A stretch of DNA of 64,000 nucleotides, from the NCBI GenBank assembly GCA_040954595.2, contig CM082581.2:3464699-3528698 (forward strand), in the 5' to 3' direction. The stretch is from Balanoglossus misakiensis (lineage: Eukaryota > Animalia > Hemichordata). The translations under genes were made by a program, and so were the position numbers. Below, piece by piece: positions 160 to 62,836 of this stretch. Positions within the stretch are counted from its first letter, which is position 1. Each line of letters begins with the position of its first letter. Below the pieces are notes generated by a model. That model worked only from the letters and a program-made list of their open reading frames with translations, was not told the origin of the DNA and ran no database searches.

Positions 160-4750
<4,591 letters not shown>

Positions 4751-6976: not shown

Positions 6977-7037
6977 TTAAACTCCTGCCAGTCTTTGGAA
7001 GGAAGTTGCGTGCAAAATATTGTTGAGTGTGTTTGTT

Positions 7038-7059
7038 CATAGACCCTCGAGGGTCTATG
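7038..7059. repeat. 22-bp perfect palindrome flanked by a 7-bp direct repeat (candidate P-type excision footprint)
   Basis: gtttgtt|CATAGACCCTCGAGGGTCTATG|gtttgtt. Confidence 0.65.
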
Positions 7060-7139
7060 GTTTGTTGTACTTCAGGTCGAGATGCAGCTAACTCCAGGCG
7101 TCGCTCGCCACTCAACTCGCTCACATGCGAGAAAGGTTA

Positions 7140-7660
7140 GGGACCGTTCATTTTTTTACGGCTGGGGGGGGGGGTCACTTATATCTGTATATTTTGAAAT
7201 CCAAAGGGGGGGGGGTCATCTTTTTTTCCGATGTTTTTTTTTGGTAGGGGGGGGGGGTCACATACTACTTTGCCCCCCCCCCCCCCACTTCTGCTTTTGA
7301 GTCCACAAAAATGCAGTTTCGAGCCCTTTATTTTACAAAAGTTTCTAATGTGGGAGGGCCACACCCACCCCTTCATTCTTCGCCACATTTCACTTATTGG
7401 CTGGTTTGTCTAGTGTACTAGAGCAGAGTACTACTACTACTTGCCACCCCACCACACCAATGCTAACTTTGAGTGGCAAACTTAAATTTGTCCTCCCCAG
7501 CATTTAGTTTTTTTAAATTAATATTGTGAGTTCATTAAAATGCAACTTTGCGCTCCGTATTTTACAAAATTTTCTTATGTGGGAGGGGGATACACCCACC
7601 CCCTTCACTTCTTGTTTTACCAATTCTGCCCACTATTGTATTGACTTTACAGGTGAATTA
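7140..7660. mobile_element. G/C-run-rich non-autonomous element (Harbinger-like), partial
   Basis: Starts tta|GGGACCGTTCA. Internal sequence (TTTTGAGTCCACAAAA..TGCAGTTTCG..CCCTTTATTTTACAAAA..TGTGGGAGGG) is shared with the element at 38935-39732. Right end not located. Confidence 0.55.
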
Positions 7661-9115
7661 AACAAATATAAGAAAACTTGTCCTAAAAATGTTGACCATA
7701 AGTATGACACATACATGCATATACACACATACAGATTATTTATATACCATGCTTAGACTCTATAAACTCCACACTTTTTGCTATAAGCAAAGGCTTCTGA
7801 AGGGCTTGCCAATGGGTAATAGACTTTATATAATAGAGCAAATCATATGCACAGTTCACAAACACAATGTCATAAAACTATTAAATTACTTAACAGATGA
7901 CATAAGAAAATATAATTATGCAACAGTTTCTTTGAACAAATTTAAAGGGACAGAACCTCTTTGGAAAAAAAGTTAAGTTTTATTCAAATTTCTTCATCAA
8001 ATTGTACATTTGTTGAGACTACCTTTAAACTTAATGCTAAAGCAACACACAACCATACCTTGTTGTTCAAAAATTGTGAAATGATTATATTATTTGCATG
8101 TATCTGCATAAATATGACACAATCTCACATGATGAAAAACCGCAACATGTTTGGTGGGCATATCAAAAATACAGGCTCTTTCTAATGTCACATGAAGTGT
8201 AGCAGAGAGCTCTATAACTATATTGATCAATGCATGAACTCAAATGACTTGTTCTGTTATAAGCCCGCCAACAACTTTCTACAAGTCTGGCTAACATCCT
8301 AAATTGTTAAATGAACAAAAGAGAACTTCAGCAAACATGAACATAAACACAGCACCAACTAAATAGGATTGACAAAGGATACAAAATTACAAGGATACTA
8401 TAAATGTACGGTGTTTTTGTCAAGGGTGGTACTCCAGCAAATGCAACTGGCATTCCCCAGTCATTTCACTTGGGTTCCTCAAGGTATATGAATGCAGTAA
8501 TATCAGTGGGTAGCAGAAATAATAATACCTGGGTTACCAAAATCATTTACCAATCTTCCCCAACCTTAGCTAAAACAATGGTGTAAACATTGAATCTGCT
8601 CTACAGTTAAACTTGAAATCAAGAGCCATGATTTTCTATCAGAATGAAAAGTGTACAACTATAATTGACCCCCCCCCCCCCTCACGTCCTCTATGTACAT
8701 AAGCTTCCACAACTGAACAGTTCCAGTGCTGCAATGCAGTTCAATCCTGTTGATTTCAATGGCATGGTTGGGTCTATATTTAGAGTTGATCAGGTTCTCA
8801 CTGATGGTTTGACAAACTGGCTTCAGCGAAGACTTATGTTAATGCTTGTGTTTGTTTCAATTTCATCCTAGTCTATGGTTAAGGTTTTGAACACTTGAAC
8901 TGCAACTTCGGATGCTCTTCACAGAGAAAAAGTTGAAAAACTGGTCTGTCAAACTTTTCAAGTGAAACCAGGCACGCTTTACAATTACAATCAAGATCTC
9001 TTTCGCCATTTTAGTGGCAAAAATGCAACATTGCAATTCGTCAAACAGTCATTCAACATGTATGTATTGACAGTCACTGGATAACAAGCCGTTCCAACTT
9101 CCAAGAGACAAAACT

Positions 9116-25808
<16,693 letters not shown>

Positions 25809-27299
25809 TGTTGTTAGTTATATTCCCCTTTCCAACACTCTAACGGGAGATAACTTGCCCGAAAGTCGAAATTAACTAGCTCACTGCGACATGCAAGGAT
25901 ATCACATGCACTCTCGATCGAGCGCCTGAGTGCTTGTTCGTTTGTTCGTGCATACTATTCTCTCTACTAGGAAAAATACAGAGGGCGCACTGTATTGAAC
26001 AATATGAATGACATGTATTTGACAGGATCGTTGGGATAAAGGATACGGAGCCAATTTTGATCAAAATTGTTATAGAGATGTTGTTTCCCACCATGTATTC
26101 ATATATTTCGAGACCCCTCAGTCATCAACAATCAATAACATGCAAATTTGCATATTTTAGTTTAATTTAATTTACTGCTTTGAAGGTAAATTTACACATT
26201 TTCAGTTTTTGTCAAACTATGTGTACATATGAGCATATTCATTTCATATTACTGTGGTTTGTCATAATGTGGTCTATGTTTTAATTTATCTATCACAACT
26301 AGCCAGGTGCATGGTGTGTGGACTTGGATGCCGTGGGCAGACAAACACACACACAAAACAGAATCTAAAAGTTAACACACTTGAAAATACTTATTAAAAT
26401 GGTCTTATAGTCCCTAGACCCATATAGACCCTAGGGTCAGACAAAACTCTGGCGTGGAACACAGCAGACATAACCAGATAACGCGATATCCATGTTATAA
26501 CTTCAATTTCAGACACAAGAATGGTTAATTAAGTTATTTAAACTGTTGGCAATTGATATATCTTTTTTTCGTGTATCTGTTGGCACTTCCAACTTGAGTG
26601 TGCATGCATCTAACTACTAGCTGCAATAATTGTAGCTCCGATGGGTGCCATAATAAATAATTAACTTCTTTGGGTAAATTATGGCATAATTATAACGAGT
26701 ACCTACAGCCAAATTTATCAACTTTTGCCTAATAAAATTTGCTTTGCTGCTACTTCGACTTGAGGGTGCATCCATTTGAGCAGCGCAGCCAGCGGCGCGG
26801 CGGGGGAAAGCGCCCGCACTGGCCCGCACTGAAAAAATGGGATCTACCATTATTCGGGGGTAGGAGCGAGACCAGGTAGTTTGGGCCGTAATCAGATCAC
26901 TTCAGATAGCCATATTGTAAGTCTTTGAGCGGCGGTGTGGCACTGAAGTCTGTGGAGAGGGAATCGTTGGTTACGTAAGGTATGTTGTGTTCATACTCCT
27001 GATGATTTACATTTTGTACACTCAAAACAAAAACAAGATAGGTCCACAACTGCCATGCCATTATATGTACCACAGTGACCCCATGCCAAACACGCGTTCT
27101 GTCATGTACCGTCTTATGAAAAGTACAAGCTGCAGTGAGGAGAGACGCTTCTACATCCAGCTTTTGACCCATCACTGTTTACTACACTACAGTAAAAACG
27201 GAACAACGTTCGATTTTATGTTTATTTATGTTAGAGGTAGCTGTGGTACGCAGCTGTACCGTTGGGGGGGGGGGCTGATTACCCGTTGGGAGAATCAGC

Positions 27300-29418: not shown

Positions 29419-32400
29419 ATGTTAAGTAGACTGAGTGTGTTGCGTCAAGTTGCGCCACGTCTCTGTCGTGCTCAGGGCACCAAAGCAAGTCCAGCGCCGT
29501 CCCAAGCTGCTGAAAAACTTTTCAAAAAAGAGGAAAAGTATGGTGCACACAACTATGCCCCAATTCCAGTTGCCCTATCCAAAGGAGAAGGTATGTCTAC
29601 AGTGCAGCTTAGGAATAGCTTTCCAATTTGCTAACAACTTGCTGACACGGTGTTTATAATGAGCCAACACAGTGTTAGCCTGTGTGTTCCAAGTGTTACA
29701 AAGGTGTGAATCTGTTGGCCCTGGCACTTGGCATTGTTCAGTGTTAGCATGTGCTACAAAGGTGTTAAACCTTGGCGCACCCTATTGTTTTGGCACACAG
29801 TGTTAGCCTGTGTGTTCCAAGTGTTACAAAGGTGTGAATCTGTTGGCCCTGGCACTTGGCATTGTTCAGTGTTAGCACCTTGGAGCACCCTATTGTTTTG
29901 GAACACCCCAGTTAAACACAAGCCCAATAGGTGCTAATTAGAGCGCCAATAGGGTGCCAACCCAGAGTTGACCCAGTGTTGGTGCAGTTGGAAAGCTATT
30001 CCTAAGCTGCACTGTAGTTCTGTGTTTGAATTGTAAATATATCAGTCACTAAAGGTAGTGCGAACCTTTAATAGGGAAGATCTTCAGAAAAATGGTGTCC
30101 TGCAAATACGTCAATTCATCGGTATATGAAATTGTGTGAAAAGACTTTTTTTTAAGAAAAAAAGGAGAAAGTAGCATGTTTACTTTCTTTCCATAACAAT
30201 CACTATTTTAACCCTTTCACCCCCAGTTCCCTCCATAGAAGTCCAAACTTACTACAGAAAACAATGGGTTTGGACTGAACCATAGTAGTGAAAGGGTTAA
30301 TGTATGTCCATGGAATTAACATAGAGATTGACAACCTTTTTGAATTTCAGAGTTGACGCAATTTGACACTTTCATTTATTCATTTAATATTTCGTGTTGT
30401 GACCCCACCCCAATTTTATTCCCAATTTAAAAGGAGAATAATCTAAATTTGCCTTGAGCAAATTAAGAGAAAAATTGTAAGAATTTTGAGGTGCATTCTG
30501 CCTTTTTGTCGCTTGAATGTTTAGAGAAAACATAGGCATTAGTTTATTCACTGAACCAGATCCAGCACTTTGAAATTGAACTGAGATTTAATTGACATGG
30601 CAGATTGAATTCTGCTTGTAATTTCATCAATAAAGCTGTCAGGTTCATTCAGGGATGACACTACCTTTTTGCATAGTCTGCATACTCTGTACAAATTACA
30701 ATGGCATTGGGGTCACTCAAAATGTGTCACTAAAAGTCTAACCAAATCAAAGTGGAAGTATAACACTGACTTCTATAGGTATCAATAGCGATGATGTCAT
30801 TTCCCCATTATTTGCACATTGCAAAACAATTTATCTGGAAAAAAATCAAAATACATTCCTAAAAGAGTAGCTAGGAAGTATGAATGTTATTAGATAGTTC
30901 CTATATGTACATGTACGGTAGTCTGTGGGTAGGACTTTACAATAATTTGTAGGTTGATGTACCGCTTACGGCTAATATGTACTAGAGGCCAGTCTCTTTA
31001 GTAATCACTAAATTACATTTGTACCTTTTATGTTTTTTTTAAAGATTTTACAATGGGTAATTGATGGAAAATTGACAAGAGTAAACTATATGTGTTGTAT
31101 AATTTTATTTTTAGGTGTCTTTGTATGGGATGTTGATGGTAACAGGTACTATGACTTTCTGAGTGCTTATAGTGCTGTCAATCAAGGTCATTGTCATCCG
31201 AAGATAGTGAAAGCACTACAAGATCAGGCATCTAAATTGGCCTTGACCTCGCGTGCTTTCCACAATGACATCTTAGGTGACTATGAAGAGTATATCACTG
31301 GACTGTTTGGTTATGACAAAGTCTTACCAATGAACACAGGTGGGTTTTATGCTTTGATGTTATCCATTCCTCTTGTGCCTCATCGTACAGTACTTTCTGG
31401 CAATATCTAATGTGGTAGTTGCTGCAATGACTCCAGACACTCTCAACGTTTTATGTAACGACACAAAACATCAGCAGTGTGTGGCCCTTTAACAGGGAAA
31501 TATTCATAATCTGACTCAAAAAATAACCAAGTTATTTTATAGTGGATAAAAGAGAAAGCACACATTTGTTTACTATAATTTCTATTTGCTTGTGATATTT
31601 GGACAAGCCACAACATATGCCAGGCAAAAAATGACAGCTGATAATCAATTTACTGTGGGATTTTCATTGATTTTTTGGGGGGGGGGGGAGTGTGCACTAG
31701 CTGGAAATCAATACACGAATATGGGTCACCCCTTCTGCTGTTTTTGAATGTTATGAATGTGTGTCAATGACATTAGGGACATAAAATGGTTATCTGGTTG
31801 GACAACCAACTAGGAGAATTAGAAGTTTTAGATGTCCAGGGAGACCAACTACAAATTATTTTGAGGCTTGGTGTTGGAAATTGCTCAGTGAGAGATCAAA
31901 TACACCTGGTACAGGACAGTATATCATTCATACATTTGTATAGAGCAGTTTTGATCAAATGTGAGCACAGTGCCCTTGATGCTATTTTTCTCATTTGACC
32001 CAAGGTGTTGAAGGAGGTGAAAGTGCATGTAAGCTTGCCAGAAAATGGGCGTACAAGGTGAAGAAGATCCCCAAAAACCAAGCCAAGATTATTTTTGCTG
32101 CCAATAATTTCTGGGGTCGTACCTTAGCAGCTGTATCCAGCTCCACTGATCCATCTGCATATGAGGATTATGGACCTTACATGCCTGGCTTTGAAATTAT
32201 CCCTTACAATGATCTTGCTGCTTTACAGGTATAGATCACATAAGTGTTATGCCTTAGAATTATACGTGAATTAATTTATACCATTAATCCTTGCACAGTA
32301 CTCATAAATGAATAAAAAAGTTAAAAATTACAGATAGTGTCCCTTGTACCAGTATATGTAAAAAGCTAGGTGTGTGAAATGATCTATTTTTTTAAATACT

Positions 32401-34435
32401 TCTTTCAGAAATCATGCAGTGATCCGAATGTGTGTGCTTTTATGGTAGAACCAATCCAAGGTGAGGCTGGTGTCTTTGTACCAGACCCAGGCTATCTAAA
32501 AGGTGTCAGAGACATATGCACCAAAAATAATGTAAGTACCAGTATGTCATCACAATAATATCAGTAGGTTTTACTAATTCTATATCAATTCTCTACACTT
32601 AAATTCCCAGACTAACATATACCATTGAAAAAATGTGAATATTTTTTGAAGAAGAGATTAATAAAACTGTGACATCAGAGACCATTGTAGACCCTTCCTC
32701 TAGATGACATCAATGTTTTTAACCCAAAATAACTGATCATAAGCAAATATATCATACTAACAATATCAATTTGTAAAGCCTTTGCTAATTGTCGGCTATG
32801 GAGAAGATTTGTCCCTTCCAGAATCAATGCATGTCTAAAGTATTAACATTCAGTTATAGAAACAGTGCTTCACATCACTTAATGAAATCTTCCATTCTGG
32901 GCCTTGATTACTCATAATTAAAAAAATATATGTGAAGTCCAGTTCTTAAATGTACTACAGTGGCAATGGAAAGAAAACTCCAAAACTAAGATTTTTCTTT
33001 GATAAATATATGTTGAATATGAATGTTTGTTGTACTCTGCAGGTTCTTTTTATTGCTGATGAAGTTCAGACTGGTCTATCCAGGACTGGCAAGCGATTGT
33101 GTGTGGATCATGAAGATGTACGACCAGACATTGTTATACTGGGCAAAGCATTGTCAGGAGGTCTTTATCCCGTAAGTTTCAATAATTTGTTCATTCGTCC
33201 AAATTTTCGTGTACTACCAACCAAGTCTGACCAATCTTTGTTCTGGTTATGACAAAGCAAGAAAAATGGCATAGAACAGGAATAATACATGTTCATAATG
33301 GTATCTGTTTGTAAGCGTATTTGTTAGCTTAGAAGCATTTACTAAAGACATACCTGAAACAAACCCCTGAGTCACATTGATAAACCAAGGCAATATAGAA
33401 TACAAGAATGCATGTTTGTCACCATGTAAACTTGCTTTCCACCCATGTTAAAGGTATATGGTCACCTATGCAAATTTAGCTACAGTCACTATGGCAAATT
33501 GAGGTCTAGCTAATGACAGATTTTCAGCGGGTGGCACATGCGAAAGAAAGAGTGCTGCCATATGTTCTTTAGAAGTGAACACTCAAATGTGCCATTTCAG
33601 CCATATATGGGCGTGTGTAAATTGAAGGTGTCCGTAAACCTTTAACTTTGATGCGTTGTGATGCTTTCCAGGTTTCAGCTGTTCTCTGCGATGATGAAAT
33701 CATGCTGACCATCAAACCGGGAGAACATGGATCCACATACGGTGGCAACCCTGTGGGGTGCAAAGTAGCAATAGCATCACTTCAAGTATTGGAAGAGGAA
33801 AAACTGTCCGAAAATGCAGAGAGACTGGGACACATTCTACGCGCTGAACTGAACAAACTTGACCGCAACATTGTGACACAAGTGAGAGGCAAAGGACTGC
33901 TGAATGCCATTGTCATCAAGCCCACTCCAGGTATTGAAGATGCACGCACAGAATACTGTAAAATGGGAAATTTTCCCTTTTGATAAATTTCCGAGAACTT
34001 CGCGAGAGCCAAAAAAACGTGAAAATAAAAAGTCACTTAAAAATGTTTTTCAGATATATCGGTGCAGTGAAATACGAGAACATGGAAATTAATTGTTGAT
34101 TTTTACAGACTCTATCTGATAATCACCTCTTCCTTTATACTTGATCAGCAGATACAAAGCCACTCATTGATATGCATCATGGTCGTCAGTCATTCATGTA
34201 CATGTAACAAATGGGAGCACAGTGTCCCTGACACTATTTTTCTGAATTATTTCTCTGTTTGGTTTTTACAGATTATGATGCATGGAAGGTGTGTCTTCGT
34301 TTGCGTGACAACGGTCTTTTGTGCAAACCTACCCATCAAGACATCATTCGACTTGCTCCACCACTGGTCATAACAGAAGAACAGATACATGAATGTGTTG
34401 CCATCCTCTCTGAAACCATGGCATCATTCGGTTAA
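29419..34435 (+). CDS. OAT: Ornithine aminotransferase, mitochondrial
   Basis: Exons 29419-29590, 31115-31339, 32005-32228, 32409-32531, 33043-33171, 33672-33930, 34272-34435; total 1296 nt (431 aa). Arg-rich transit peptide, [48 protein letters not shown] lysine in [19 protein letters not shown]. Confidence 0.98.
29600..30014. mobile_element. TA-flanked TIR element with internal direct repeats, 9 nt downstream of the donor of the first OAT coding exon
   Basis: ta|CAGTGCAGCTTAGGAATAGCTTTCCAA ... TTGGAAAGCTATTCCTAAGCTGCACTG|ta; perfect 27-bp TIR; ~80-bp internal segment duplicated at ~29668 and ~29795. Confidence 0.85.
30212..30296. mobile_element. 85-bp piggyBac-like mini-MITE
   Basis: ttaa|CCCTTTCAC ... 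GTGAAAGGG|ttaa. Confidence 0.75.
33452..33641. mobile_element. MITE family A copy in an OAT intron
   Basis: TTAA-flanked, AGGTATATGGTCACCT left end. Confidence 0.8.
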
Positions 34436-34818: not shown

Positions 34819-36599
34819 TTAAAATGCAAAAATATGGATTAAAATATGATTGTGTGTAGATGAGTCATTGTGGATTGAGATGAAACCTGACTGGATTGAT
34901 GTTAACCCTTTTTGCCAAGCAATACTTCCACTGTATTCATTGCCAATGTAAATGCCTTTTGTTACATCTGCCTTTGTTTGAAAATTGTCGCTTTCATTGG
35001 AAACAAAATCTTTATTGGTGTTTCACTTTGGAGTGTGTCAGTCGTTGTTTCAGACAGAGGCAGTGTGTATGACATGTTACTTTCTCCATTGGCCATCTGT
35101 GATCAAAAGTGTGTACACTCATGGGTAGATAATTCTGGAAAGACATCTGAAACAATATTTTGATTTCTGCATTGTTGGCTGGTGACTAATGACGCTACAA
35201 ATAAATGTGTATGTGCACAAACTGTTTGATAGTTTGTTTCAAATTGGTAGCTGTGTCATGGAGTCACATGACATTGACATCACTTACAGTCATTGAAGTA
35301 GACTCAGCCTCTTTCTCTTGAATCTTTAATAGCTTTTGTTCGGGAAATCTAAAAAATGAAGTATTGAATCTTCTCAAAGAAATGAAGGCATTGAGGTTGA
35401 TGTAGAGTCATAGACTAATGTAACTGGGAGACTTTTAACTGTAGTGTTTGTTTCGTAACTGCCATACTTGATGAAATTGCTACTGCCAATTATGGAAAAT
35501 ACAAAAAAACTTATTTTCTTTCATCACACTCAGGGGATAAGTTCATGAAATGAGAAACGGCATATGGCTTTTTCAGAGACCTGTTCAAACAAGAATTAAC
35601 AGTACATGTATACCACTTTCTTCTCTTTATATATGCAAATATGTCTTTCAGAAATTCATTCCTGACTTACTGTCCATGTAGTGATCGAGCGCACATACCG
35701 GTACTTGTCAAACAAGTACATGAATCATGTACTGCTCATTCTGAATAAAATTTGCTATTCTGTCAAAATGAGTTTTTGGCATTTTATTATGCAGATTCAT
35801 CAATACCAGTTATAAATTATCTACATCAAGTGTTTCAATCCTAACAGGAAATGCACACATGAAGAAATGTATCCTATAAACACACTTTCTAGCAATGAGA
35901 TTAAAATTGTGAATGTCTCATTTCCACTCAGGGTATTCTGCATTTAGATCATATGAATTTTTTAACACCTAATGGTGTTAATACCCCAAAGAGGATTTTG
36001 TTAACTTTTGGTATTCTTGGTTAGCCAGACCCCTCTGCTTCTTCCATTGGGCACTCAAGAAAGAGGGTCTGGGGAAATACTATAGAAAAATCTCTGGGCA
36101 AAGATGGCCGACTCGAGGCAAAAGCGATGCATGATGGTCGACATTTATGACATTTGATATTATAAACTGCAGAAAAACCTCCACTCTGAAATGGGAAAAA
36201 GGCCAAAAATCCATGAGGTCTACATCTTCTACAGATGCTGACATAATGATAAATTAGGTAACCCCCTGTACATGAAATTTGGAAATAAATTTTGGATATT
36301 TCAGTGTTCCTTGAATTTTTATTAAAATAGTATTAAAGCATGACAAAATGCATCTCACTGTGTTTGGCCTAAAATCTCCCAAGCTCTGATAAAATGAAAG
36401 ATCATGATGATTGAAAGTCTGAAAACGAACATGCTTTTAACTCCTTTGGTCTAAGTTTTCTCAGTTAGAAAATTTGTTATTGATACTTTTATTGCCCATT
36501 GGAGAAAAGTTTCTAAAATAAGTTTCGAAAATGACGTCATGGTTCTGCCTGATAGGATGCACATGCGCAAGTTTCTAAGTGAACGTCCTTTCAAAATGG

Positions 36600-36853
36600 T
36601 CAATTCAGATTATTTACTTGAGTTACCTGGTAAGTATTTTATTGGATGCAATAGTTGAAACCTTGCGATGAAGGCGCATATCATTGTACTCTTCACAAAG
36701 AATTTTTTTTAGGTAAAACATCAATTTTAGATTATTTACTTGAATTACCAGGTAAGTATTTTATTGGATGCATTAAAACTTGCATTGTTGAAACCTTGCA
36801 ATGAAGGCGCATATCACTGTACTCCACAAAGAAAGTTATTTTAGGTAAAACAT
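36600..36853 (+). repeat. ~122-130-bp imperfect tandem duplication containing the helicase exon end and splice donor
   Basis: GATTATTTACTTGA.TTACC.GGTAAGTATTTTATTGGATGCA...GAAGGCGCATATCA.TGTACT...TTAGGTAAAACAT occurs twice. Confidence 0.85.
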
Positions 36854-38934
36854 GAAAATTACGTGCAAAAATTGTCATTGAAAATCAGAAATATGCCTAT
36901 TTTACTTCATCATTCAGAATGGAAGGGGCAGTCAAGTAACTACCTCTTTACTAATTTAAATTGCAGTACATGTATGCAATTTCTTGTTCTATCAACAAGC
37001 GTGTTTTTAGAAGCAAAACAACAGATTCTCAGACTCACTTTCAATTCATGAAACAAAAGCAAATTTAATCTAAAAACATGATTTGTGTAAAGTGATACAT
37101 TACTCTATGTACACAAGGAAAGCTGGTTTTATTGAAGTTCACAAGTGAAAAATTTGAAGTAAAAAAATATATACAGATATTTTGAACTCTACAAATAAAA
37201 AAAAAAGGTTTTCACAGTATCTTTCTATAGTGTGAGTTCAAGACAATGTCCCTTTTTAACAAATAAAGCACATAACAAAATTACATTTCATTTTAATTTG
37301 CAATACATTTCTCATTTGGCATTTGACTCCCTCAGTGGTTTCTTTTTCTTTTTAAGGGGTTCGCCTGAACATTGTGTATACAGAGGTACCTTGATACCTC
37401 CTGTGTTTGACTTTCTTGTACGAATGGTCTGTTCAAGTATGGTACTACATGTAGTTACTACTTTCGCGTATGCTGAATATGTTGGATTGGTTGTGTTGCC
37501 ATTGTATAACCCCCTCTCTTGGCAAAAGTGATTTTCAACTATATCACTATTAAAACGACTGGGCACCAAACCCCAACCAGGATATTCAGTTGCCATTGAT
37601 TTTGAAACGTACAGAAATCCCAAAATGGACGAGGCTAGGTCTTCTCTGCATTGGGCAGACATCAACATTTTAGATTTTACTGATTTATCCTGCTGTGAAT
37701 TGATGACATCCCCCTCCCATTCTTGGAACCAGGCATGAATACCTTCTAATTTATCAAGGCGCTCATAGTCATTGGCAGTGATTGGCCTACTGTCTTTGAA
37801 AGTTTCTATTAGACATGATGTTTGTTCCAGAAGGGTGATGGCTCCATTCAGATGAAGGCCATTTGGTAGACTTGCCCTATAGCATTTCATCAAATGTAAC
37901 ATATTTGTGTCAAGCATTTCAGCAGCAAGATGATTTCTCATCTTTTCAGTTTGGTTTGGATACATATGAGTATTGGTCACCTTGTGGTGAATTGGTCTTG
38001 AATTCGTTTTCCAGTCCCATTCCACAGCTTCAACCCAACTTTTCCAGACAATGAATTGCCCCCCATACTGTAATTTTCGCTTATGATATCTCTCATCTCC
38101 ACTTGACAGAATAGCATTGCGTATTTTTTTGATAACATGCGAAATATCCTGGCAATGGGCAATCTTACGAGATGGGTCCACCAAATGGGTGCTTAAGAAT
38201 TTGACGTCAATTGGAGGGCCACTGAAGTGCATATGGGTGAATGATCTGTTTTGTTCACCTCCATCCTGGCAGATATAGTCGACTGTAAAACCCCAGTCTT
38301 GCAGTTTAGAAATTACATTCCAGATATTTATAAATATCTCTGAGGCTTTTACACCACTTGTTGGATAGTGAGCAATGGGGAAACGAAATCCTGTGTTACC
38401 CAGAAATATCAGTTGCCATGCCTCGGTGGCCAACTGCCGTGTGAATCCCTTATGTTTCATCACCGACAAATTAAATGCTTCATCACCCAAGTCTATTAAT
38501 CCTACCAGTTTCAGTCCATTCCCCTTTCTTTCAAGAACAAGCTCATCCTGAATTTTACACTCATCGTGTATAATGCTATCATGCATGCCAGGAGCTGGTA
38601 TTTGCCTCTGTGGCCGCGGCTTTATACATCCATGTAATCAGATTTCATCCCGTATGCCACTCGCCTGTGGTACACAGTGTTTGTAATGACGTAACAGTCT
38701 CGCTGAGGGCAGAATAAGCATTTTACTGTCATATAAATCCTGATAAGCTCTTGGGCTCCTGATCCACAAAGTGAGACACACTTTTATGATCTGTGGATCC
38801 CACCTTCTTGCATAGGGACTTTTACACATCAGTGCCTCATGTTGGCTTTTAAGGAGGATTTTCATTTCTGCTGATGCTGATGGATATACTTGGGAGAGCA
38901 CTTCTTCCATTTCTTTGTGGTCGTCTTCTATTAA

Positions 38935-39732
38935 GGCTGCATTCACAAACACCTCTGGAGGGGGGGGCAGGAGAATTGAGGGGGGGGATTTGAAAAAATT
39001 GAGGGTATGTGAGGGGGGGGATTTGAAATAATTTAGGGACTGAAAGGGGGGGACTTGAAAACTTTAACGACTAAATATTTATTTTGAGTCCACAAAATGC
39101 AGTTTCGCGCCCTTTATTTTACAAAATTTTCTCATGTGGGAGGGGGACACCCCCTCCCACACCCACCCCCTCCATTCATCAACACCTTTCAATCATTGAC
39201 TGGTTTATCTAGTGTCCCAGGTCAGGGGACTTGCCCCACCCCATGATAACTTTGAGCGCCGACGGTTAAATTTGTCCTCCCCAACATACCTGTAGTTGAG
39301 TTAATTTGCTTTTGCCGGGTTCATTAAAATGCAGCTTTGAGCTCTGTATTTTAGAAAATTTTCTTACGTGGGAGGGGGACACCCCCTCCCAAACCCACCC
39401 CTTTCAATTCTCGGTTTACAAAGTCTCCAAACACAGAATACAAATATATGTACTTAAAAAATAAAAACAATGTTCAGTTTTAATACCCACTGATGAGGGA
39501 AAACATCAGTTTCAAATTCTTTTCATGGGAGCGCTGTTTTTCTTTTTACAAGATAGATAGGTGATGTGTTTTGCTCTGTGAAAGACAATGGGGGGGGATT
39601 TCAAAATTTTGGCAGTTCGGAAGGGGGGGATTTGAAAATATTGGCAGTTCGGAAGGGGGGCATGTGAAAATTAGCGGTAAAAAAAATTGAATTCTCCCGC
39701 CCCCCCCTCCAGAGGTGTTTGTGAATGCAGCC
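38935..39732. mobile_element. PIF/Harbinger-like non-autonomous element (TAA TSD) inserted in the transposase ORF
   Basis: taa|GGCTGCATTCACAAACACCTCTGGAGGGGGGG ... CCCCCCCTCCAGAGGTGTTTGTGAATGCAGCC|taa. Confidence 0.92.
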
Positions 39733-41541
39733 TAAGAGCACCTTGCCATCACTCTCTTCATCTACATTATTACATGTAGCAGCCTTCCTTGGGTCTTCTC
39801 TGTTAATCCTTATAAATGCCGTTTGACATGTGTGACAAGCAGTACCAATAGAGGTCCAGTTCAGTACTTGTTGGCACCTCGAGTCTCGCAGTCGATAGTC
39901 AGCAGGGTTATCACTACAGGCAGGGCTATACATCTCTTTTATAAGTTTAGACATCCTTTCTGGTGTGGCCGCTGTCTTTGCTTTTGAAATGGACATGCCT
40001 GTACAGATGTTTATTTTGTCAACAATATTCAGTATATCCTGTACTTCTTCTTTGGTAGGTTGAAATTTATTTGAAATGAACAAGTGTTTCAAATCAATGT
40101 CAACATTACGGACTTGCAGTTTCCATTCATTCTGTAGAAATGTCACTTTTTTGAAGATCTGGTTGCCGTTGCAAACTTCACTTGACAGAACGCCAACCTG
40201 TACCACATTGCTTTCAGCTGATGGAAGGTGAAATGCATTTGCAGGAAGGAACTTTGTTATATCATCCAGTGCGCACAGCTCTTCTGTATCTTTGTTACAC
40301 TTAAACTTCAGCCCTTTGTACACTTGGTGCCGCTTTCCAGTTGTACATTCAGTGGTTTTACCATTTCTTACTGGGAACAAAGCCTGCAACACTTTCGAAA
40401 AAGTATTATGCGTAACCTTTTCAGCAGACTTGCTGGCAGCTTTCACGTAGGCATCCCATACAGCCATTTGTTTTATGCAACTTGATTCACAAACTTCAAG
40501 ATTTTGGTAACACCTACAAAGTAAAGCAGAAAATGCAAGTGAGAAATATGAGAAATATTGTTGAAATTAAATTAGAATTGTAGAAAGATGTATACTAAGC
40601 CTGATTTGTTGGCACTTATTGGTTATTTCTATGCACAATTGAAATACAAAATGCCTAACGTTAGACCTTATACAGTTAGTGGGTACAACAAAATTCCCAG
40701 TACAATACAACTAGTGGCATACAGTCACATCTTTGTCTCTTCTCTGGTTCATTTATTCATCCAGAGTAACCCTGCATTTACATAAACTAAAAATGTTTAA
40801 TGCAGTTCATAATTTGCATACCAAACATGACTGGAGCTCAGCTGAAAATAAAAGCTGCAGAGTTCCTGTTATATTGCAGTTACTTCTTTTCCAGGCTGTT
40901 TCTTTGCAAACCATATTAACTTTATTGTGTTTTTTTTTCAATTACAGGAGTGATGAAAACCTATAAAGCTGTAGACAGTGGTGATCCTAAGTACTTCAAG
41001 GATTTTAATGCACCTACAAACCTTCACTTGAAAAAAGATGCCCCTGTCATGTTGACCATGAATTTAAATGATAAACTGGTGAATGGCCTTATCGGTCACA
41101 TAATTGACTTTGTTGACCAAGGGCCTCGAGTCTTTTTTGAGGCTATACAAAAAACTATCATCATCACAACGTACACATTTTCCAAGTACAGACCAGATGT
41201 GAAAAAAGTTGTGGCTACTCGTGAACAAATTCCATTGAAGCTGGCCTTTGCCATGACGGTGCATAAATCGCAGAGTCTGTCCATTCCACGGTTACAAGTG
41301 GACTGCCGCCATATGATGTTACCAGGACAACTAGGTGTGGCGATTGGTAGGGCAACAGAGAAAAAAGGACTAAGAATCCTGAACTTTAAACAGTCTTTAC
41401 TCAAACCCCAGCCAGACAAAGTTATCGAATTTTATAATTCACCATGTGCCATGTTTAAGAGTGACATGAGCTGCTGTACTTCCCTGGCATTTGACAAGTC
41501 TGAACTTCAAGATGACGACCATGCTTTTGTAGGCAGCATGT

Positions 41542-41542
<1 letters not shown>

Positions 41543-41581
<39 letters not shown>
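41543..41581 (+). repeat. (GAT)n trinucleotide repeat encoding poly-Asp in the helicase ORF
   Basis: tatgatgatgatgat... translated in frame as YDDDDDDDDDDDDD. Confidence 0.9.
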
Positions 41582-41942
41582 CCAACAGATGATACAAGCC
41601 TTAGAGCAAGTGCTGAGTGAAATTAATGAGACATCTGTGTCAAGTGATTCAGGATGTGATGGAGGCTATGGTGTGAGGAACAGCGATCACAATACTCTGC
41701 CTGATCACAAAGCAATAGACAGAATCACCAAAGAACTGAAATACAGAGATCCAAAAACACAGGAGCAGCGAGACCTTAATGCTGCACTTGAAGAGCTTGT
41801 AGATAGCAGACACTTCAGGCCATTTTGCCATAAATTGTATTTCAAATATAATGAAATAGTGCCCAAAACACTTAACCAGACTCAGCTGCAAAACAAAAAT
41901 TTCACAGAGCTCTATAAACAGTTTGCTTTATTTATGAGCAGC

Positions 41943-42140
41943 AAGGTGGGCGGAAGTTGGTCCTGGCGCTTTTTTTCCCATGATTCAAATTACAGTAAAC
42001 GCCATATTGGAAATTCTGCCAACTTTCCCTAGATTTTGTAAAAAATCGCGCGACCTATACATGGCGAATATGTTTTTTTCTGATAGAGTGACATTAAAGC
42101 TACCAAATTATGTAGAAATCGGCTATGACGGATTTCCCCT
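41943..42140. mobile_element. Single-arm fragment of family B inside the helicase-PHD gene
   Basis: Near-identical to 13581-13768; ends CGGATTTCCCCT|ttaa. Confidence 0.9.
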
Positions 42141-43616
42141 TTAAGACTTAAGTCAGAACTGGCTTCAAATACACAATATATAGAAAACATGAATATGAAA
42201 AAGCCTGAGCTTGCCTTGCTCTGTCAGGCATATAACATTTCAAAATCAGAACAGAAGACAAAGATAAACATGATCAATGCATTAAAGACAACAATAATAA
42301 ATAGTCAACAAATGCCATATCCAGACAAGATAAAATCACCAACACAGCAAAGACAACACAGTGAACAGATAAACACTTCTTTTCATACACTGTCTGAACA
42401 GCAGCCAGGGCCAAGTGGTACTTCAAAGGTCCACAATCAAGAAGTTGCTGTACCACTACCAGATAAAGATGCAAAGACATCTTAATCTGAGCTTGACAAA
42501 GAACAGCCAGATTCAGGAAACACAGTGGCCAGAGCAGAGACTGTTAAACAGAAAAGGAAAAGTACACACAGAAACATAAAACGGCCAAAAAGACAGAAAG
42601 TTGCTAAATGGCCCTGTGGTAGATGCAGTGAAAATTGTCTTTCAGATGCAATATGTTGTGATATTTGCCAAATGTGGTACCATTTTAGCTGTGTTGATAT
42701 TACTGGAGACAGTGTGGATGATGATGAGGATTGGTTATGCCACAAATGTTTGATAAAAGATTGAACCGAATCAGAAGCAGGAAATGATAGGTCAGGTGTA
42801 GTTGAAATAATTATTACGTGTGTGTAAGGGGTGGCCGCTTCCAAATGTAATAAGACTAGGTGTCATCAAGCATCACATTACATGTAATTAACAAATGACA
42901 TGTTAAATGTTTTACCTTATTTTTATCAAATTTTTATCACTGCTGTTTTGTTTTTACAAATTTCTTCTTATTTTTATTGGTGTTGCACTAGGCACACCAT
43001 TGACATTTACATTACATAATACATATAAACAGCCCTTTCAGGAATACATGTATAATCAAAACCAAAATGCCCTCTTCAGGGCCACTACGAAGGTGGAATA
43101 AAGTGCAGGATGCGACACTCAGGGACTCTGCATGTTTTGTTCACTAGTTCAGCTATCTATCACTTACCTGCATACACCAATTTATACAGCCTGAGCCAGC
43201 ACAGTCATTTATAATTATATTATTAAAAATGAATAGAAAAATTTACTCAAAAATCACTTGATAGAAAAAGATATACACTTACCAAGAAACTGCATACACA
43301 TTTTCAGAAGCCATTGCCAATGTCGCCTCGCAGTTACAGAAAAAGATTTGCGAACGCACATGAAGATGTTACGCTGACCAGGATCTGAAATTCAAATGTT
43401 GGCGGTTGTCGCGCAATTTCTTTATGTGTCAGTGGGGTATAGGCCTAGGCCCGAACATAGCGCGAGAGAAACCACGGCCATCTTGTTCTAGCTCGCACAC
43501 AAGCTCTGCAGTGCATTATGGGTAAAAGTAATGTTTATCAACAAAGGCTAAATCGGGACGATACCCGCCGTTTAACATGTGCTTCTATGTCAAAGGGATG
43601 GGAGAAGGTGTTCAGT

Positions 43617-43749
43617 CAATCTGATTAAAATCAGATGTAGGGAACGGCGACGTGGTTTTTTTATGCTGTCGCCTCACACTAGTTTTGTGAGGCGACGACA
43701 GCATAAAAAACCACGTCGCCGTTCCCTACATCTGATTTTAATCAGATTG
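43617..43749. mobile_element. 133-bp hairpin MITE with 9-bp TSD
   Basis: gtgttcagt|CAATCTGATTAAAATCAGATGTAGGGAACGGCGACGTGG ... CCACGTCGCCGTTCCCTACATCTGATTTTAATCAGATTG|gtgttcagt. Confidence 0.88.
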
Positions 43750-43831
43750 GTGTTCAGTATACATAGGTTTCCATATTAGACCAGGTTTGGTTGTTACCGA
43801 TTGTAGATCCTTAACCTCTCTTCAGTATCAT

Positions 43832-44215
43832 CAGTGTACGAAATAAAGCCTGTCCGACAGTCCGAGACTGGTTGTTTTTCAGGACTGGTAAAAATAAAAT
43901 GTTACCAGTCCGACAGACAGGTTGATTTTAACGTGGGAGTTGACCAGTGGTATCATGGTATCTTTTAGACTTTCCCCAGTTCATGTATTGCAAATAAAAG
44001 AAACAATGATCTAAGTAATGTAAAGAGAAACTGAAAGATGATTCCATCCCATCTTCAATTGTTCAAAGATGAGGTAATACCTTCTCAGTTGTATTTGATT
44101 ACATTTAATTGTAAGGTATAATATCAGGACTGGTAAGTTTTTGGCAGGACTGGCAACTTTTTGAAGTTGCCAGTCCTGGTGACTGGTTGATATTTCCTAC
44201 GAATTTCGAACACTG
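43832..44215. mobile_element. ~384-bp TIR element with CA...TG ends and 7-bp TSD
   Basis: gtatcat|CAGTGTACGAAAT ... ATTTCGAACACTG|gtatcat; near-identical inverted copy at 62455-62836. Confidence 0.9.
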
Positions 44216-44829
44216 GTATCATACCCCATTACGTCTCAATCAGTGACACTGGCATAGCTAGAGCTTTGTTTCAGAATACAGTACTTTATTTTCCGTGAAA
44301 ATGATAGCGACATACAATCAAATTAAAGTTTGGCTGATACAAACTTTACACTTCACATAACTTGACAGCAGTATTAAAACAAGTGTGAAACATTTTTGTC
44401 AATGTCTGTTCTATCTCAATCTCATTTTGAGAACATGAAAAAAATCTAACATTAACACGAACAGAATAAATACCTTTTTTTTCAATGTCTCTATCCACAG
44501 AGGTTCCAATGTTCAATCCTATCAGACAGTCATCAAGTGCTAAATCTAGTTTAATATTCAAAAGTAGGATTATGTATACAGTATAGTAAAACAAAACAAA
44601 AACAATATGATTATTCACAACTACCCTGAATAAAAACATACAACTCACAAAGTATGTTACTGCAACCAAAATACTTTCTTTATACACTCTCCACATCATC
44701 CCTGTAGTTATTCGTTCTGGTTGATGACACAATTTTTTTTATATGTTTGTAACGCTTTGATTACTACAGTCTGTCCTCATTATATTTATATCAATAAATA
44801 TGCTTTTTTTGACTCGTCTAAGATTCCTG

Positions 44830-44906
44830 TAGTCCTGTTCCCAGCCCCATTCCTAACGCTGGCTGCACTACACCCAGCCATGGGAATGGGTCAGGGAACC
44901 AGACTA
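44830..44906. mobile_element. Short TAG...CTA hairpin element
   Basis: TAGTCCTGTTCCCAGCCCCATTCC ... GGAATGGGTCAGGGAACCAGACTA; AGATTCCTG repeated on both flanks (imperfect TSD). Confidence 0.55.
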
Positions 44907-46624
44907 TTGAGATTCCTGGCCCTCCATACACTACGAATTTGATTACCGGTACCTTGTAGTGCAAGATTCATTGCCTAGCAACAGCAAAGCCATCTATCAA
45001 CATGCCCATTGTACAGACTTCAAAATTCAGTTTGTGGATTCAATTTGTCTTTGATCAGAGATTGTTGGTAGCAATTTTGAATACACCATTAGTTCCAATC
45101 TGTATCATGCATAATTAGTTCAACCTTTCATATGGTTTGACACTGACACAAAAATAGCTCACAGCATTTGGACCAGTGGTTTCAGAAGACAAGTGTTGAC
45201 AGATTGCCAGACAATCACTCTATCTGATGAGCTCCATGTTGCTGACCAACAGAGCTAAAATTTAAAAACTGAAGAAATTCATTTGGGGAAAATAAGCTTT
45301 GGGGAGGGGGGGGGGGCAGTGAAAGTCATTCTGAAATGGAATGTTGACAGAACTGGCATTAGAAACAAATACATCGACTTGTAAATGATGACATTAGAAA
45401 AAAAAAAGCTCACTACTTAACACCAGACTATAACACATATTTTGCATTACAGCTATGTGAAATTGAATCCAGACAATCTTTCTAGGGTTGCAGTGGGAAG
45501 AGACATCAGTCTTTTGAGACAGTTGGGGGAACATTGTGATCCATTATTTGGGAACTGTGGCAAGGCTGGTCACTCTTGATGGACAAGGTCAAATACCTGA
45601 CATTGAGACATTGAAGGTTTCATTGGTGATGAAGAGAAGTTAGCCACTTCCATCAATGGTCAAGCAATAGTGCAACTACTACCTTCAGGAGTGGTGACCA
45701 TTACTACATCCCCTCCACCTTAAAAGCTATGGTATCTCCCTGATTTCCAGAAAAAAATAGATTTAGCCTGTATCTTTTGTGTTTGAGGACGAAAACCTGA
45801 ACACAGTTTTAAAGCTGCGAGAAGTTCCATATGAATGCATATTTTCGAAGATGATCAACATCTTACTCAGTGGAGTCGAGCTAGGGAGACTTACGTTTAT
45901 ATTTGCTTAAATTTCCATCACAATGCCAATGTGTAAAGGACACCAATGTAACTGTATGCTTATTTGCATTTGCTTATGGCAAATGAACTGAATTCCCAGC
46001 AAATTGAAGTGATTGATCCCGAGGGAGTAACAAGTGAAGTTTTAGTCTGTTACTTTGGACCTAGTCTCCAGTTGACTCAGTATGCACATATTTATTAGCA
46101 ATATCTTATAAAGTATGCCCCACACTTCAAGAGGTTGTAACATTAAACTGTAACACTTTAATTTTGCGACACTTAAGCTTGAGGCAATGGCAACAATAAA
46201 GTATTTAATGCCCCCATTTTCTGACATTTGTTTCTTGTACACAACTGATCCTAACAACTCTGAAGTTTTCATTTTCTGTTCACTGTAACACATATGACAG
46301 CATGTGGTGACATTTTGCTTTCGTACGATGGGGTTGCTTTCTGTCCTTGTCAATACAAAATCAACACAGAAGAATCTTCAAGCAGTTGAAACTGTTTTGA
46401 TTTACACGGACCCTCAACTTCCAGTATCCAGACCCATTCATCTGTCAAGTGTGCGTGGTGCGTGGACTCAGTAGGGCCTATATATGGCCAAGCCAGCGAG
46501 ATTTGGTACAATACGCCAATGTCTGTAAATGAGCCATGCCAAGATAGGACTGCAAAGAGACTCAATACCTCGTTTAAACCACTTGCCAAGGGTGCCCCAT
46601 GTAACACCCCTGGCAGGAAGAGAG

Positions 46625-49600: not shown

Positions 49601-51919
49601 TGTGAAACCACAGGCAATGCTTTCTTTCAACAAGATATGCAAATGAAAAGAAACAAAACAGCAAAGACTAAGAGGTCAACCGCTTCACTGCCACGTACCT
49701 AAGGAGTCATCTCTTTTCCTCTTCTTTCCCACCTTGGGACTTTCTATAGTTTCAACAATAGTAGTTGTCCCGTCTTGTGTGTCTGTATAAACAGTCATGA
49801 TCTGCCTTTCTGGTGTTGCAGCTGCCACTTTAACCAAATAATACAAGATTTTAGATCGTGGAATTTGGGTGAATAACCAAAGAAAACAAATGTACACAAA
49901 ATCAAACATCTAGGAGACATCTAGGTGTAGAGACTTGACCATACCAGTTGCCTCTTTTGATATCGCGAAAATTTCCTGTCGCGAAAATAACCTGTTTTAC
50001 AGTAAATTCCTAGAAAAATGGTACCAATAACCATTAACAATTTTACAGTCACATGACCTATGCACCTTCTTACATTGACACAATATGGGAGATGTTGCAA
50101 GTTTTAATTAAAGACTTTCCCCGGCACCAGTTATTTTAATTACCCAAGTCTTAATTACTTAATTATCGCCCAATACTAGTGCAGTCCGGTTTACTCTGTC
50201 TAAGTAACTATGGGAATCCATTACAGATTGCAACAAATCCAGACTTGGTAGTTAAGTGCGGTAAAACCCATGATAGCTTCCTGTGTATTTCTATGTTTGC
50301 CACGTACAATGTATAACTTTCAATTCTGACTTTTCAGATTGTGATTGCAGATATGCCATCAGCATCAGATAACAATTATACCTGCCATACAACACGATGA
50401 CCTCAGCACTTTTAGCCCATGAAGCCTGGCACCTTTCCACCACTATTTTGTGCATTTTTGCAAAACTCGCACAAGTTATACATGGTGAAAATAGTTTTTC
50501 TCAAATAACTAAACCCAAGGCTACATGTAGCAGTAGTAGTAAGTACATACGTAAAAATCAGCCTTGCTGAACTTCCTCTGTAATTACATTTGTATGTAAA
50601 ACTGTCATTGCATTTGTTCCATACTGTTCATATAGCTCAAAGGAAATAGTTGATAGGACTCAACAGCAAAGTTTTGCTTGATATTGCACAGTGGGTTTAT
50701 ACTCTCGATTACCCAGACCCCTCTGCTTCTTCTGATGTGCTCCAGAAAATGGTCTGGGGAAATACTATAGAACAATTTGTAAATTTTAGTCGAGTTGCAT
50801 ACTGACAGATTAACCAATCAGCGGCTGATCGAAATCCTGGCAGTGGCCATTTTGTTTTAAAAAATCGTTCTATAGTATTTCCCCAGACCCTTTTCTGGAA
50901 CACAGCAGAAGAAGCAGAGGGGTCTGGGTAACCGAGACTAAGTGGGTTTATTGACCTTTTAGCTCCTCACCATCAGGATCAATTGTGTCACTTCAAATTA
51001 TGGCAACATTGGTATTGAGATAAGCATATGAAAGAAAATAATTATATTATAATCAGAAATATCTGTTCGTATAACACTGACCTTGCTGCACATGAGCATC
51101 TAAATTGATGTAGTAGTTGAATTCTTCAGACAATTTATCATCACTCGCAAAAGCACAAATGCACGCATAGAAATGCACACATCGCCTTTTATGTTCTTCA
51201 ATATGTCCAATGGTTTTCAAGTTCTTGAAGGCTCTGCACGTACAATGGAATTTTCTCTCTATCACACCGCCTTTCTTTGTGTTCTCACTGAACGAGAAAT
51301 GTAGGAATCCAAGCGGTTGCTTTGGATTTGTCTTGCACTTGACAACCATGATGTTCTTGGTTACTCTTTGCACCAATGGTCCCGTGGTTTCTGTTGCCAG
51401 CAACCAGATGGCCTGTTTGACTTCATTGGAAACTGGCAGGGAGTTCAGAACAGAATTCTTCAGTGTCAAAGGCACCGCATCCTGACCGCATTGCAGTGCG
51501 AGTTTGATGTGGTTGCAAGGTGTTTGAACAACTCCCCCCTGCGATCCCGGTCGCAAACACGCATCCACAAAACATCTTCCTGTCTGTCCAAGAACTGAGC
51601 TGTCAACTGTCGACGGCTGGCCAGCTTGCAACTCTGGGGAGAGTGGCAACTGGACAAAACCCCGATAGTCTGGCCCTCTATCTCGAAGTCGCACAGAAAA
51701 TACTTGTACTGTTGATCCGGTGATAATCTTAACAGCGTCTGCACTATGTCCACCTCTGCGTTGTCTGTCCTTGAAAACTGCATTGCACGCTTTATTTTTA
51801 CAACTGAGACCTCTGGTGCCATTATAGGTGCCACACTTTGGGCATTTCTTAACACCTCGCATAGTAGGCCTGCCAAGGTCTTCAAAAGTTATCTTCGGTT
51901 TTTCAGGAGCAGCCATCAT
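46625..51919 (-). CDS. C2orf42: C2orf42-like protein (N-terminal treble-clef zinc finger)
   Basis: Exons 51919-51082, 49827-49699, 49095-48883, 47556-47348, 47166-47004, 46821-46625; total 1749 nt (582 aa). Motifs [119 protein letters not shown] match recalled C2orf42. Confidence 0.92.
50700..50940. mobile_element. Non-autonomous element with TA(G/C)...CTA ends, ~75-bp TIRs and 10-bp TSD (AcademH-like)
   Basis: agtgggttta|TACTCTCGATTACCCAGACCCCTCTGCTTCTTCTG ... CAGAAGAAGCAGAGGGGTCTGGGTAACCGAGACTA|agtgggttta. Confidence 0.85.
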
Positions 51920-53059
51920 TTTGAATTTATTTCAAAGGAACCTACATGCATACATCACCTGTAAAGTAAAACAGAGAACTGGTTATTTAATAAAGAGAGT
52001 ATAATGCATGTTTTGGAAAGACTTTCTCGGTATAATTCAGGTGTATACACTGCAGTACTGTATAAACTGGCATATACCAGTACATTAACTGCACCATTTC
52101 AACCATAATTCGCATGGTGCACTGTTTTGAATTTTGTGTTGGCATTTTGGGCGTGTTTTTACCACAGGGCCTAAAAAAAACACCCAGTTTAGAGTACACA
52201 AAATTATGTTACATATCTGCAGTGTTTCAACTAGATGGTGGGATGGGGATATTCACCCCCTGTTGCCATGTAGGCACCCCATAGCAATTTGTCAATGGGT
52301 GACCAGTGCCCCTTAAAATAATGTCACTCACATGTTGGAGATATTACATTCCCCACTGCCCAAAGAGTCGAATCGCCCCAAAATATTCTGACAAAAAGGG
52401 GACATATCCCCCACCCCACCATGTTGACGTCATCCTGGATGGAAAACTGATTCAAGTGTTTTCTGGTGCCTGGTAACCCCCCCCCCCCCCCTCTCTCTCA
52501 CACACACATTGTTTTGATGTGGCTGAATATTACCAATGGTCGAGGGCATATTCCTTGCTGCGGATCCGTAGCTCTATAACTCAAGGAATCGGTTATATTC
52601 GTTGGGAGAGTTTTAGATCTGCGGCACCACACTCCACAGCAAACACACCCGTAGCACCGAACTCCCAGCATTTCATGCATGTACTCTCTCAATGCATTTG
52701 TGTGAAGCTGCGAGTTCGGGCTGTAGGGATTAGGAGTGTGACCAGTTCAGAAATTCCGTCTTCTTAACTGTACTTTCGAAAATGTGGGATTAAATTACAG
52801 AAAATGGATACACACACGCACGTGACTATCCGCAAGATATTTCAAAGTACATGTATCGTCCACTGTCCAAGTGACAAACAAAATTGTATGGATTCAATCA
52901 TTGAATTCACAGTGTGTACATGTACTCCCTTGCCGGTCTAATTACATATTTCAGTATACGATACAATTACTTTCCGCATACAAACAGGAATAACATCCCC
53001 ATATCACTGTTTAACTATGGAACATCAATGTTTCTAAATATGATCAGTGGGCGTTTTAC

Positions 53060-57000: not shown

Positions 57001-57986
57001 GAGAAAAACCCCAATAGAAATTATAATAGGAAACATTCAAATGAGATATAATGGTAATTCCCATTTTGTGATTTGTTATCAGCAAGGAGGTCTTGGTAAT
57101 ATGAATATCCCGCTGTTATCGGACTTCAACAAAACAATCTCAGCTGACTATGATGTCCTCATCGATGCTGGTGTGGCATTAAGGTTAGTATTAGAGGGTT
57201 CTTGGCTCTAAAATAGCTACTATTTTATAGTTCAGTGTACATGATATGTAAATTGAATGACAACGTTACTGTGCTTTTCTTCAGAGGACTATTCATCATC
57301 GACAAAGAAGGCATCGTACGACACAAGAGCGTCAATGATCTCCCTGTAGGGCGATCAGTGGATGAGGTGTTGCGTCTTGTCAAAGCGTTCCAATTTGTGG
57401 AGAAACATGGAGAGGTCTGCCCTGCTGGATGGACACCAGGTTCAGACTCGGTACGTCACATTTTCTTGTTACATTATGATGCACTATGCACCTTCAAGCA
57501 AGCGATTCAAAAACGAGGCCAGTAAGCCACAGAGTAGTGCTCGATCTCGTCTGGTTTGTTCTATATAAGATACAATTTGCGTGTAAAAATTATATATCAT
57601 TAAAATGTGGCTGGCGAACATCTTTCCCAACTATAACGACAATACGCAAGACGGTAACAATTTTACTCCGTGGCTTACTTGACTCGTTTTTGCATCATCT
57701 TGGAAGGGCGCCCTCTTTATGGAAAAGGCGTATTAGGAAAGGTTCAGAACTTGTACACTGTCACTGGTTCATCCAGAAAACTGTCTAGATCACCTCTCTC
57801 TTCTGAAGCATTTGGATTAATATACTTATATGTATACATATAGGTATAAGTGATAGGGCTATTACATACACTATGCTGTGAAGAGAATTGAAATATTTAC
57901 TTCTTTGTGTACTTTTGTTTTTTTCCCCTCAGATGAAAGCTGACCCTGAAGGTTCCAAGGAGTATTTTGAGAAAGTCAATGAATAA
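54036..57986 (+). CDS. PRDX3: Typical 2-Cys peroxiredoxin, mitochondrial (PRDX3-like)
   Basis: Exons 54036-54068, 54230-54320, 55988-56129, 56425-56560, 57083-57183, 57285-57450, 57933-57986; total 723 nt (240 aa). Arg-rich acid-free presequence, [15 protein letters not shown] (peroxidatic Cys), [13 protein letters not shown] (resolving Cys), SKEYF. Confidence 0.95.
54478..54577. mobile_element. 100-bp TAG...CTA hairpin MITE, ~9-bp TSD
   Basis: ttatattct|TAGCTGCAATGATTGTAGCGG ... CCGCTACAATCATTGCAGCTA|ttatattcc; related single end at 26618. Confidence 0.8.
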
Positions 57987-62454: not shown

Positions 62455-62836
62455 CAGTGTTCGAAATTCATAGGAAATATCAACCAGTCACCAGGACTGG
62501 CAACTTCAAAAAGTTGCCAGTCCTGCCAAAAACTTACCAGTCCTGATTATACCTTACAATTAAATGTAATCAAATACAACTGAGAAGGTATTACCTCATC
62601 TTTGAACAATTGAAGATGGGATGGAATCATCTTCCAGTTTCTCTTTACATTACTTAGATCATTGTTTCTTTTATTTGCAATACATGAACTGAGGAAAGTC
62701 TAAAAGATGCCATGATACCACTGGTTAACTCCCACGTTAAAATCAACCTGTCTGTCGGACTGGTAACATTTTATTTTTACCAGTCCTGAAAAACAACCAG
62801 TCTCGGACTGTCGGACAGGCTTTATTTCGTACACTG
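62455..62836. mobile_element. Second copy of the 7-bp-TSD element, opposite orientation
   Basis: ctaacat|CAGTGTTCGAAAT ... ATTTCGTACACTG|ctaacat. Confidence 0.9.

Follow-up and report, generated by a model that had tools for sequence, protein, structure and literature searches.

A dead two-gene P element of Balanoglossus misakiensis, with a transposase whose missing C-terminal domain is predicted on its own Pif1-PHD protein

When a transposase gene shares one block of DNA with a helicase gene on the opposite strand, do the two belong to a single mobile element, and if so, what would their proteins do together? The question is raised by a locus of the hemichordate Balanoglossus misakiensis, which lies in a stretch of 64,000 nucleotides (GenBank assembly GCA_040954595.2, contig CM082581.2, forward-strand positions 3,464,699 to 3,528,698), hereafter the window, and in which a P-type transposase gene on the minus strand is interleaved with a plus-strand gene for a Pif1 helicase ending in a PHD finger. 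Gene content, antisense layout, co-occurrence of both genes in many independent elements, congruent protein trees and, in one relative, P-type ends with an 8-bp target site duplication (TSD) are direct observations, which bear out the original prediction of a two-gene element; that the element is co-mobile is close to certain. We read the window copy as a dead, left-truncated two-gene P element, in which the C-terminal domain (CTD) missing from the transposase is predicted by structure models to reside on its own Pif1-PHD protein, the two forming a joint transpososome (probability about 0.68). Relatives were drawn from protein databases, metagenome loci and contigs of read runs.

Two interleaved genes in the window copy

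From left to right, the block contains the following features.

36013-36163, end of a separate high-copy non-autonomous repeat with an Academ-like terminal inverted repeat (TIR), not a terminus of the two-gene element
36600-36629, plus strand, remnant of the helicase exon preceding the transposase-containing intron (ten-codon exon end, phase-1 GT donor)
36721-36751, second, tandem-duplicated copy of this donor remnant
37312-38931, minus strand, transposase exon 2, C-terminal part (helix-turn-helix (HTH), RNase H with insertion domain; no CTD)
38565, 38265, 38148-38137 and 37536, minus strand, catalytic D, D, DxxH and E of the transposase
38640-38638, minus strand, internal stop of the transposase, flanked by two compensating frameshifts
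38935-39732, miniature inverted-repeat transposable element (MITE) 1 inside the transposase (44-bp TIRs, TAA duplication)
39733-40513, minus strand, transposase exon 2, N-terminal part (predicted RFX-like winged helix, conserved four-Cys motif)
40948-41938, plus strand, first part of the last helicase exon (Pif1 2B/2A motifs, poly-Asp, first helical region)
41939-42148, right half of a TTAA MITE, replacing about 930 bp of the helicase gene including the CTD-like domain (full copy at 13156-13772)
42144-42764, plus strand, end of the last helicase exon (small helical region, basic stretch, PHD finger)
43283-43314, minus strand, putative transposase exon 1 past the helicase 3′ end (10 codons and 2 nt, phase-2 GTAAGT donor)

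Joining putative exon 1 to exon 2 and removing an 801-bp MITE (38932-39732) rebuilds a transposase of 810 codons plus stop, with the predicted length and every catalytic motif in place (D394, D494, D533xxH536 and E737). The frame of exon 1 agrees with that of exon 2, the observed/expected CpG ratio exceeds 1 at 43250-43750, and the relative L012 has a similar exon, ending in TG directly before GTAAGT, at the equivalent relative place, in the interval that separates its left TIR from the end of the helicase. A single internal stop, at codon 369, falls within a stretch of about 20 codons that is shifted by two compensating indels. Positions 38547-38770 occur in two versions in X1, which together with X2 makes up the sequencing runs of one sample (coded organism A): one equals the window, and the other carries 12 substitutions and 7 gap letters and differs at the first frameshift site too, X2 listing the window version only.

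The transposase is P-type, having an RNase H core with D, D and E together with C/DxxH. Pfam recognizes TNP-like_RNaseH_N (E 2.7e-8), followed by RFX_DNA_binding under its curated cut-off (1.9e-4) and a weak match to the P HTH (0.078). The fold of the GTP-binding insertion domain is predicted from a model aligning 431 of the 442 residues of PDB 6P5A chain A, and Pfam TNP-like_GBD is found in 6 of 65 family members. The N terminus is predicted to fold as an RFX winged helix; Pfam RFX occurs in 8 of the 65 members and Pfam THAP in none, and none of 34 full-length proteins matches a THAP pattern. Hence the description "P/THAP9-type" stands for the catalytic core and fails for the N terminus, and by core and ends the element belongs to the P superfamily, outside the canonical THAP lineage. 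The transposase model stops at the end of 6P5A chain A and 88 of 89 tails are shorter than 150 residues, so that there is no CTD.

The helicase exon from 40948 encodes Pif1_2B (Pfam 2.5e-5) and the late helicase motifs, followed by poly-Asp, a helical region and finally a PHD finger (42615-42749, Pfam 1.8e-7) whose best PDB matches include the TAF3, Alfin and Pygopus fingers, which locates every part that had been claimed for it. The gene is dead, as claimed: there is a premature stop at 42483-42485, and about 275 residues present in relatives are lacking (residues 339-613 of P0017 are unmatched). No N-terminal Pif1 exons were found in the 64-kb window by tblastn and hidden Markov model (HMM) scans. 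Truncation directly before the last exon had been assumed, but the 5′ exons once lay beyond the transposase, where the remnant at 36600-36629 has its identical exon end and phase in L001, L003, L004 and L014. Because this donor survives past the transposase 3′ end, the transposase is placed antisense within a helicase intron, while its own first intron, given putative exon 1, contains the last helicase exon. Such nesting, and with it the probable move of the CTD onto the helicase, had been overlooked at first reading.

MITE 1, which is PIF/Harbinger-like by the TSD rule, is precisely absent from one contig each of X1 and X2 (38931 joined to 39733), an X1 contig has about 930 extra bases at the 41939-42148 site, as judged from piece coordinates, and contigs of both runs carry a different base at 42483 that removes the stop; less damaged versions therefore exist in that sample. 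In both runs the element is read about twice as deeply as its flanks, a hint rather than a copy number, and runs X4 and X5 match chiefly MITEs.

Homology to long X1 and X2 contigs begins at about 36599. The left end originally proposed, 36012-36163, had to be rejected as a terminus, being the end of a separate high-copy repeat that matches both arms of the MITE at 50700-50940 at 82-84%; its read depth runs into the thousands, and loose ends lie behind 36163. The family of these two copies is high-copy, has hairpin-containing 84-bp TIRs and a 10-bp duplication, and is AcademH-like by TSD length. Searches around the element returned no TIR pair or TSD above chance for the window copy, and Rfam gave zero matches within 35000-45000.

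Recurrence of the gene pair in independent elements

The transposase core as query retrieved 16 longer proteins, including a Holothuria leucospilota model that fuses transposase, Pif1 and PHD. The helicase exon as query retrieved 19, among which full-length proteins from Pecten, Mytilus and Mercenaria, about 1000 residues long, have intact Walker A and B motifs. Cluster members lie on four different contigs in Pecten maximus and on two in Mytilus trossulus. Furthermore, an HMM search of 1.84 billion representatives yielded 866 proteins at E <=1e-30, a count of proteins irrespective of genomic context, and none of 88 pattern matches among viral contigs encodes a relative. The lineage is thus real and widespread, being found in molluscs, an echinoderm and marine metagenome hosts.

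We collected 75 metagenome loci using the transposase alignment as sole query. A helicase-gene profile matches 32 of them (L033 by its PHD alone), and all 74 helicase hit segments are antisense to the transposase. Loci too short beyond the transposase carry no information on the helicase; of the 26 that reach at least 1.5 kb past the transposase end, 23 are positive, or 20 of 23 sequence families once loci are collapsed at 90% DNA identity, and pairing is found overall in 24 of 52 families. L018, L049 and L060 carry the family transposase with no helicase match in 1.9, 3.4 and 10 kb downstream, respectively, and may be truncated copies or a helicase-free branch.

The elements are about 12 kb long, and their TIRs span 120-150 bp. 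L012 contains an entire element (629-12648) whose TIRs, about 120 bp long, start CACAGG, with CA...TG termini and an exact 8-bp target duplication, for which word the chance is about 2e-5, whereas in L016 TIRs of about 150 bp surround both genes and the contig stops at the terminus. In both, the helicase lies inside the TIRs as the second gene beside the transposase. Hence, of the arrangement sought in multiple loci, pairing and antisense orientation recur broadly, TIRs are seen in L012 and L016, and TIRs beginning with CA plus a TSD in the P range of 7-8 bp in L012 only.

The transposase lies within a helicase intron at one of two positions (near 205 and near 383 of the profile) or tail to tail with the helicase, depending on the locus group, which implies more than one rearrangement of the layout with antisense orientation kept. 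By layout, L001, L003 and L007 form one group, L011, L012, L029 and L050 another, and L016, L030, L035 and L058 a third. In the Holothuria gene model P0004 (KAJ8044896.1) the transposase is joined to the helicase from mid-Pif1 onward, which, going by the model alone, implies a same-strand layout there, in contrast with all 32 positive loci.

Trees were compared for the 15 pairs that retain 110 or more residues of the helicase core and 100 or more of the transposase core (13 of the 24 positive locus families, the window and the Holothuria model). All 7 splits at support of at least 90 are common to both trees, as are 9 of 12 overall, although shared host ancestry could contribute to this; one split conflicts with moderate support. 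Shuffled labels gave at most 3 common splits. Congruence, proposed as a check on the pairing, is thereby found. Distance correlations came to 0.63 in two regions of the helicase and to 0.27 in the CTD-like one. Between L030 and L035, where dS is near saturation, the transposase exon and the CTD-like domain each have a dN/dS of 0.11, and the C-half of the helicase has 0.18.

A predicted division of the transposase and its alternatives

The CTD-like domain of the helicase protein has a predicted fold match to the domain that the transposase lacks, and a transfer of the transposase CTD onto the helicase is, on these models, rather probable. With such a domain on the helicase, the two proteins would likely act as one transpososome. 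In the Drosophila complex, the CTD touches the target DNA as well as the single strand that is looped at the transposon end. Pif1 motors run 5′ to 3′ on single-stranded DNA. The transposase, with its RFX-like winged helix, HTH and RNase H with GTP-binding insertion, would bind and cut the ends, and the helicase protein would provide the CTD in trans, so that an ATP-driven motor would be tethered at the transposon end or integration site. The likeliest task of this motor may be to remodel or dismantle the strand-transfer complex and to assist gap filling, and the PHD finger is a plausible candidate for biasing insertion toward marked chromatin. An obligate two-subunit, motor-coupled transpososome, with ATP-driven unwinding and chromatin reading wired into target capture, is a tentative extension to which we give slightly under even odds. 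On similarly guarded terms, it would be an old animal P lineage whose interleaved opposite-strand genes are hard to separate.

The helicase-PHD protein of a real two-gene P element could also be a mere accessory, as RecQ is in AcademH and KolobokH, with the fold match reflecting a common helical arrangement and the transposase working without a CTD. We consider this unlikely, but several points speak for it: all the linkage evidence fits it equally well, and there is zero sequence similarity between the CTD-like domain and P CTDs. Sequence searches linking this domain to canonical P transposases came back blank, one of them returning 22 proteins that all lack a transposase Pfam family. Moreover, the C-terminal region of human THAP9 failed to align with the Drosophila protein, as reported in one study (PMC10824691), so this part of the transposase is variable. 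A complex prediction that paired the transposase core of L001 with the CTD-like domain from the same locus scored 0.00 (no alignments, fold of the partner uncertain) and weighs on neither side.

Chance nesting of a P element in a host Pif1 gene or a Helitron would suit a window full of nested repeats, a transposase inside a helicase intron and a copy without termini; it is nevertheless contradicted by the repeated linkage, namely pairing in 24 families, both genes inside the TIRs of L012 and L016 and congruent trees, and we regard it as highly improbable. As to the Helitron variant, which had been named as grounds for refutation, a pattern search of six-frame pieces from all 75 loci and from the window found no Rep motif, the full-length helicases begin at the Walker A motif (motif I) with no Rep or Helitron_like_N among the Pfam matches listed, and their profile scores E 3e-95 against cellular Pif1 versus 1.6e-30 against Helraiser. 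A domesticated host gene pair, for which purifying selection and RefSeq gene models in bivalves might speak, is the least probable of all, given the TIRs and TSD of L012, dispersed near-identical copies, broken copies and a window copy that is MITE-damaged and sits just downstream of an aminotransferase gene.

Neighbourhood of the window copy and relation to known transposons

The window is intron-rich animal DNA, and Pfam identifies four host genes in it.

12130-25813, RNA polymerase II second subunit
31012-34435, class III aminotransferase, ending about 1.6 kb left of the element block
51053-51931, zf-tcix protein
57217-57525, peroxiredoxin

Two MITEs (43832-44215 and 62455-62836) are 98% identical, with CAGTG termini and 7-bp duplications (GTATCAT and CTAACAT), a young family with P-like ends, and 43617-43749 is a near-palindromic 133-bp MITE with 45-bp TIRs and a 9-bp duplication.

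With its SF1 helicase, this P-superfamily lineage would join the few helicase-carrying cut-and-paste transposons, and many "PIF1" gene models of bivalves and echinoderms are transposon genes. For P transposition, the route to the unusual end structure and the disassembly and repair of the strand-transfer complex are stated to be unknown in one account (PMC7776569); the split, if true, would offer a natural separation-of-function system for both questions, and a modular transposase with its targeting part as a separate protein. We found no description of a P transposon with a Pif1 gene in the literature searched, a scope exclusive of Repbase, Dfam, subscription journals and supplements; such elements may stand under P names in Repbase or appear in the supplementary tables of papers based on it.

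The Drosophila P element, THAP9 and zebrafish Pdre2 (PDB 6P5A, 6PE2) share with this family the HTH, the split RNase H with insertion domain, D-D-E and DxxH. P elements, like L012, have CA...TG termini, and they and Pdre2 make 8-bp TSDs (PMC7776569, PMC10983969). Canonical P elements differ in having THAP where this family has the RFX-like winged helix and four-Cys motif, a CTD on the transposase and a single transposase gene; the additional antisense gene, which encodes the Pif1 helicase, the CTD-like domain and the PHD, the length of about 12 kb and TIRs of 120-150 bp also set this family apart. AcademH, whose helicase is RecQ/SF2, and KolobokH likewise encode a helicase in a cut-and-paste transposon, but their Academ or Kolobok transposases belong to other superfamilies and are combined with RecQ-type helicases, whereas here a P-type transposase goes with an SF1 Pif1. 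In the portions consulted of the respective reports, KolobokH carries RecQ, on the complementary strand in Kolobok-1_CCri (PMC9587614), AcademH TSDs measure 9-10 bp (PMC10045372), and a split of the transposase goes unmentioned for either (PMC9587614, PMC10045372). Helitrons (RepHel, Helraiser 7LCC) resemble the family in bringing a Pif1-family helicase into a mobile element (PMC8788227, PMC11417382), and the terms "P element", "DDE" and "PHD" are absent from the main text of the former; they differ from it in that the present elements combine TIRs, a TSD and a DDE transposase, have no Rep domain and encode a helicase nearer cellular Pif1. Among bacterial transposons, the ATPase partners MuB, TnsC and IstB are AAA+ ATPases, not helicases, and are not known to carry a transposase piece. 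They are alike by analogy only, as separate NTP-driven subunits for target capture or activation (for IS21, PMC11208146), while here the partner is a helicase carrying a predicted piece of the transposase.
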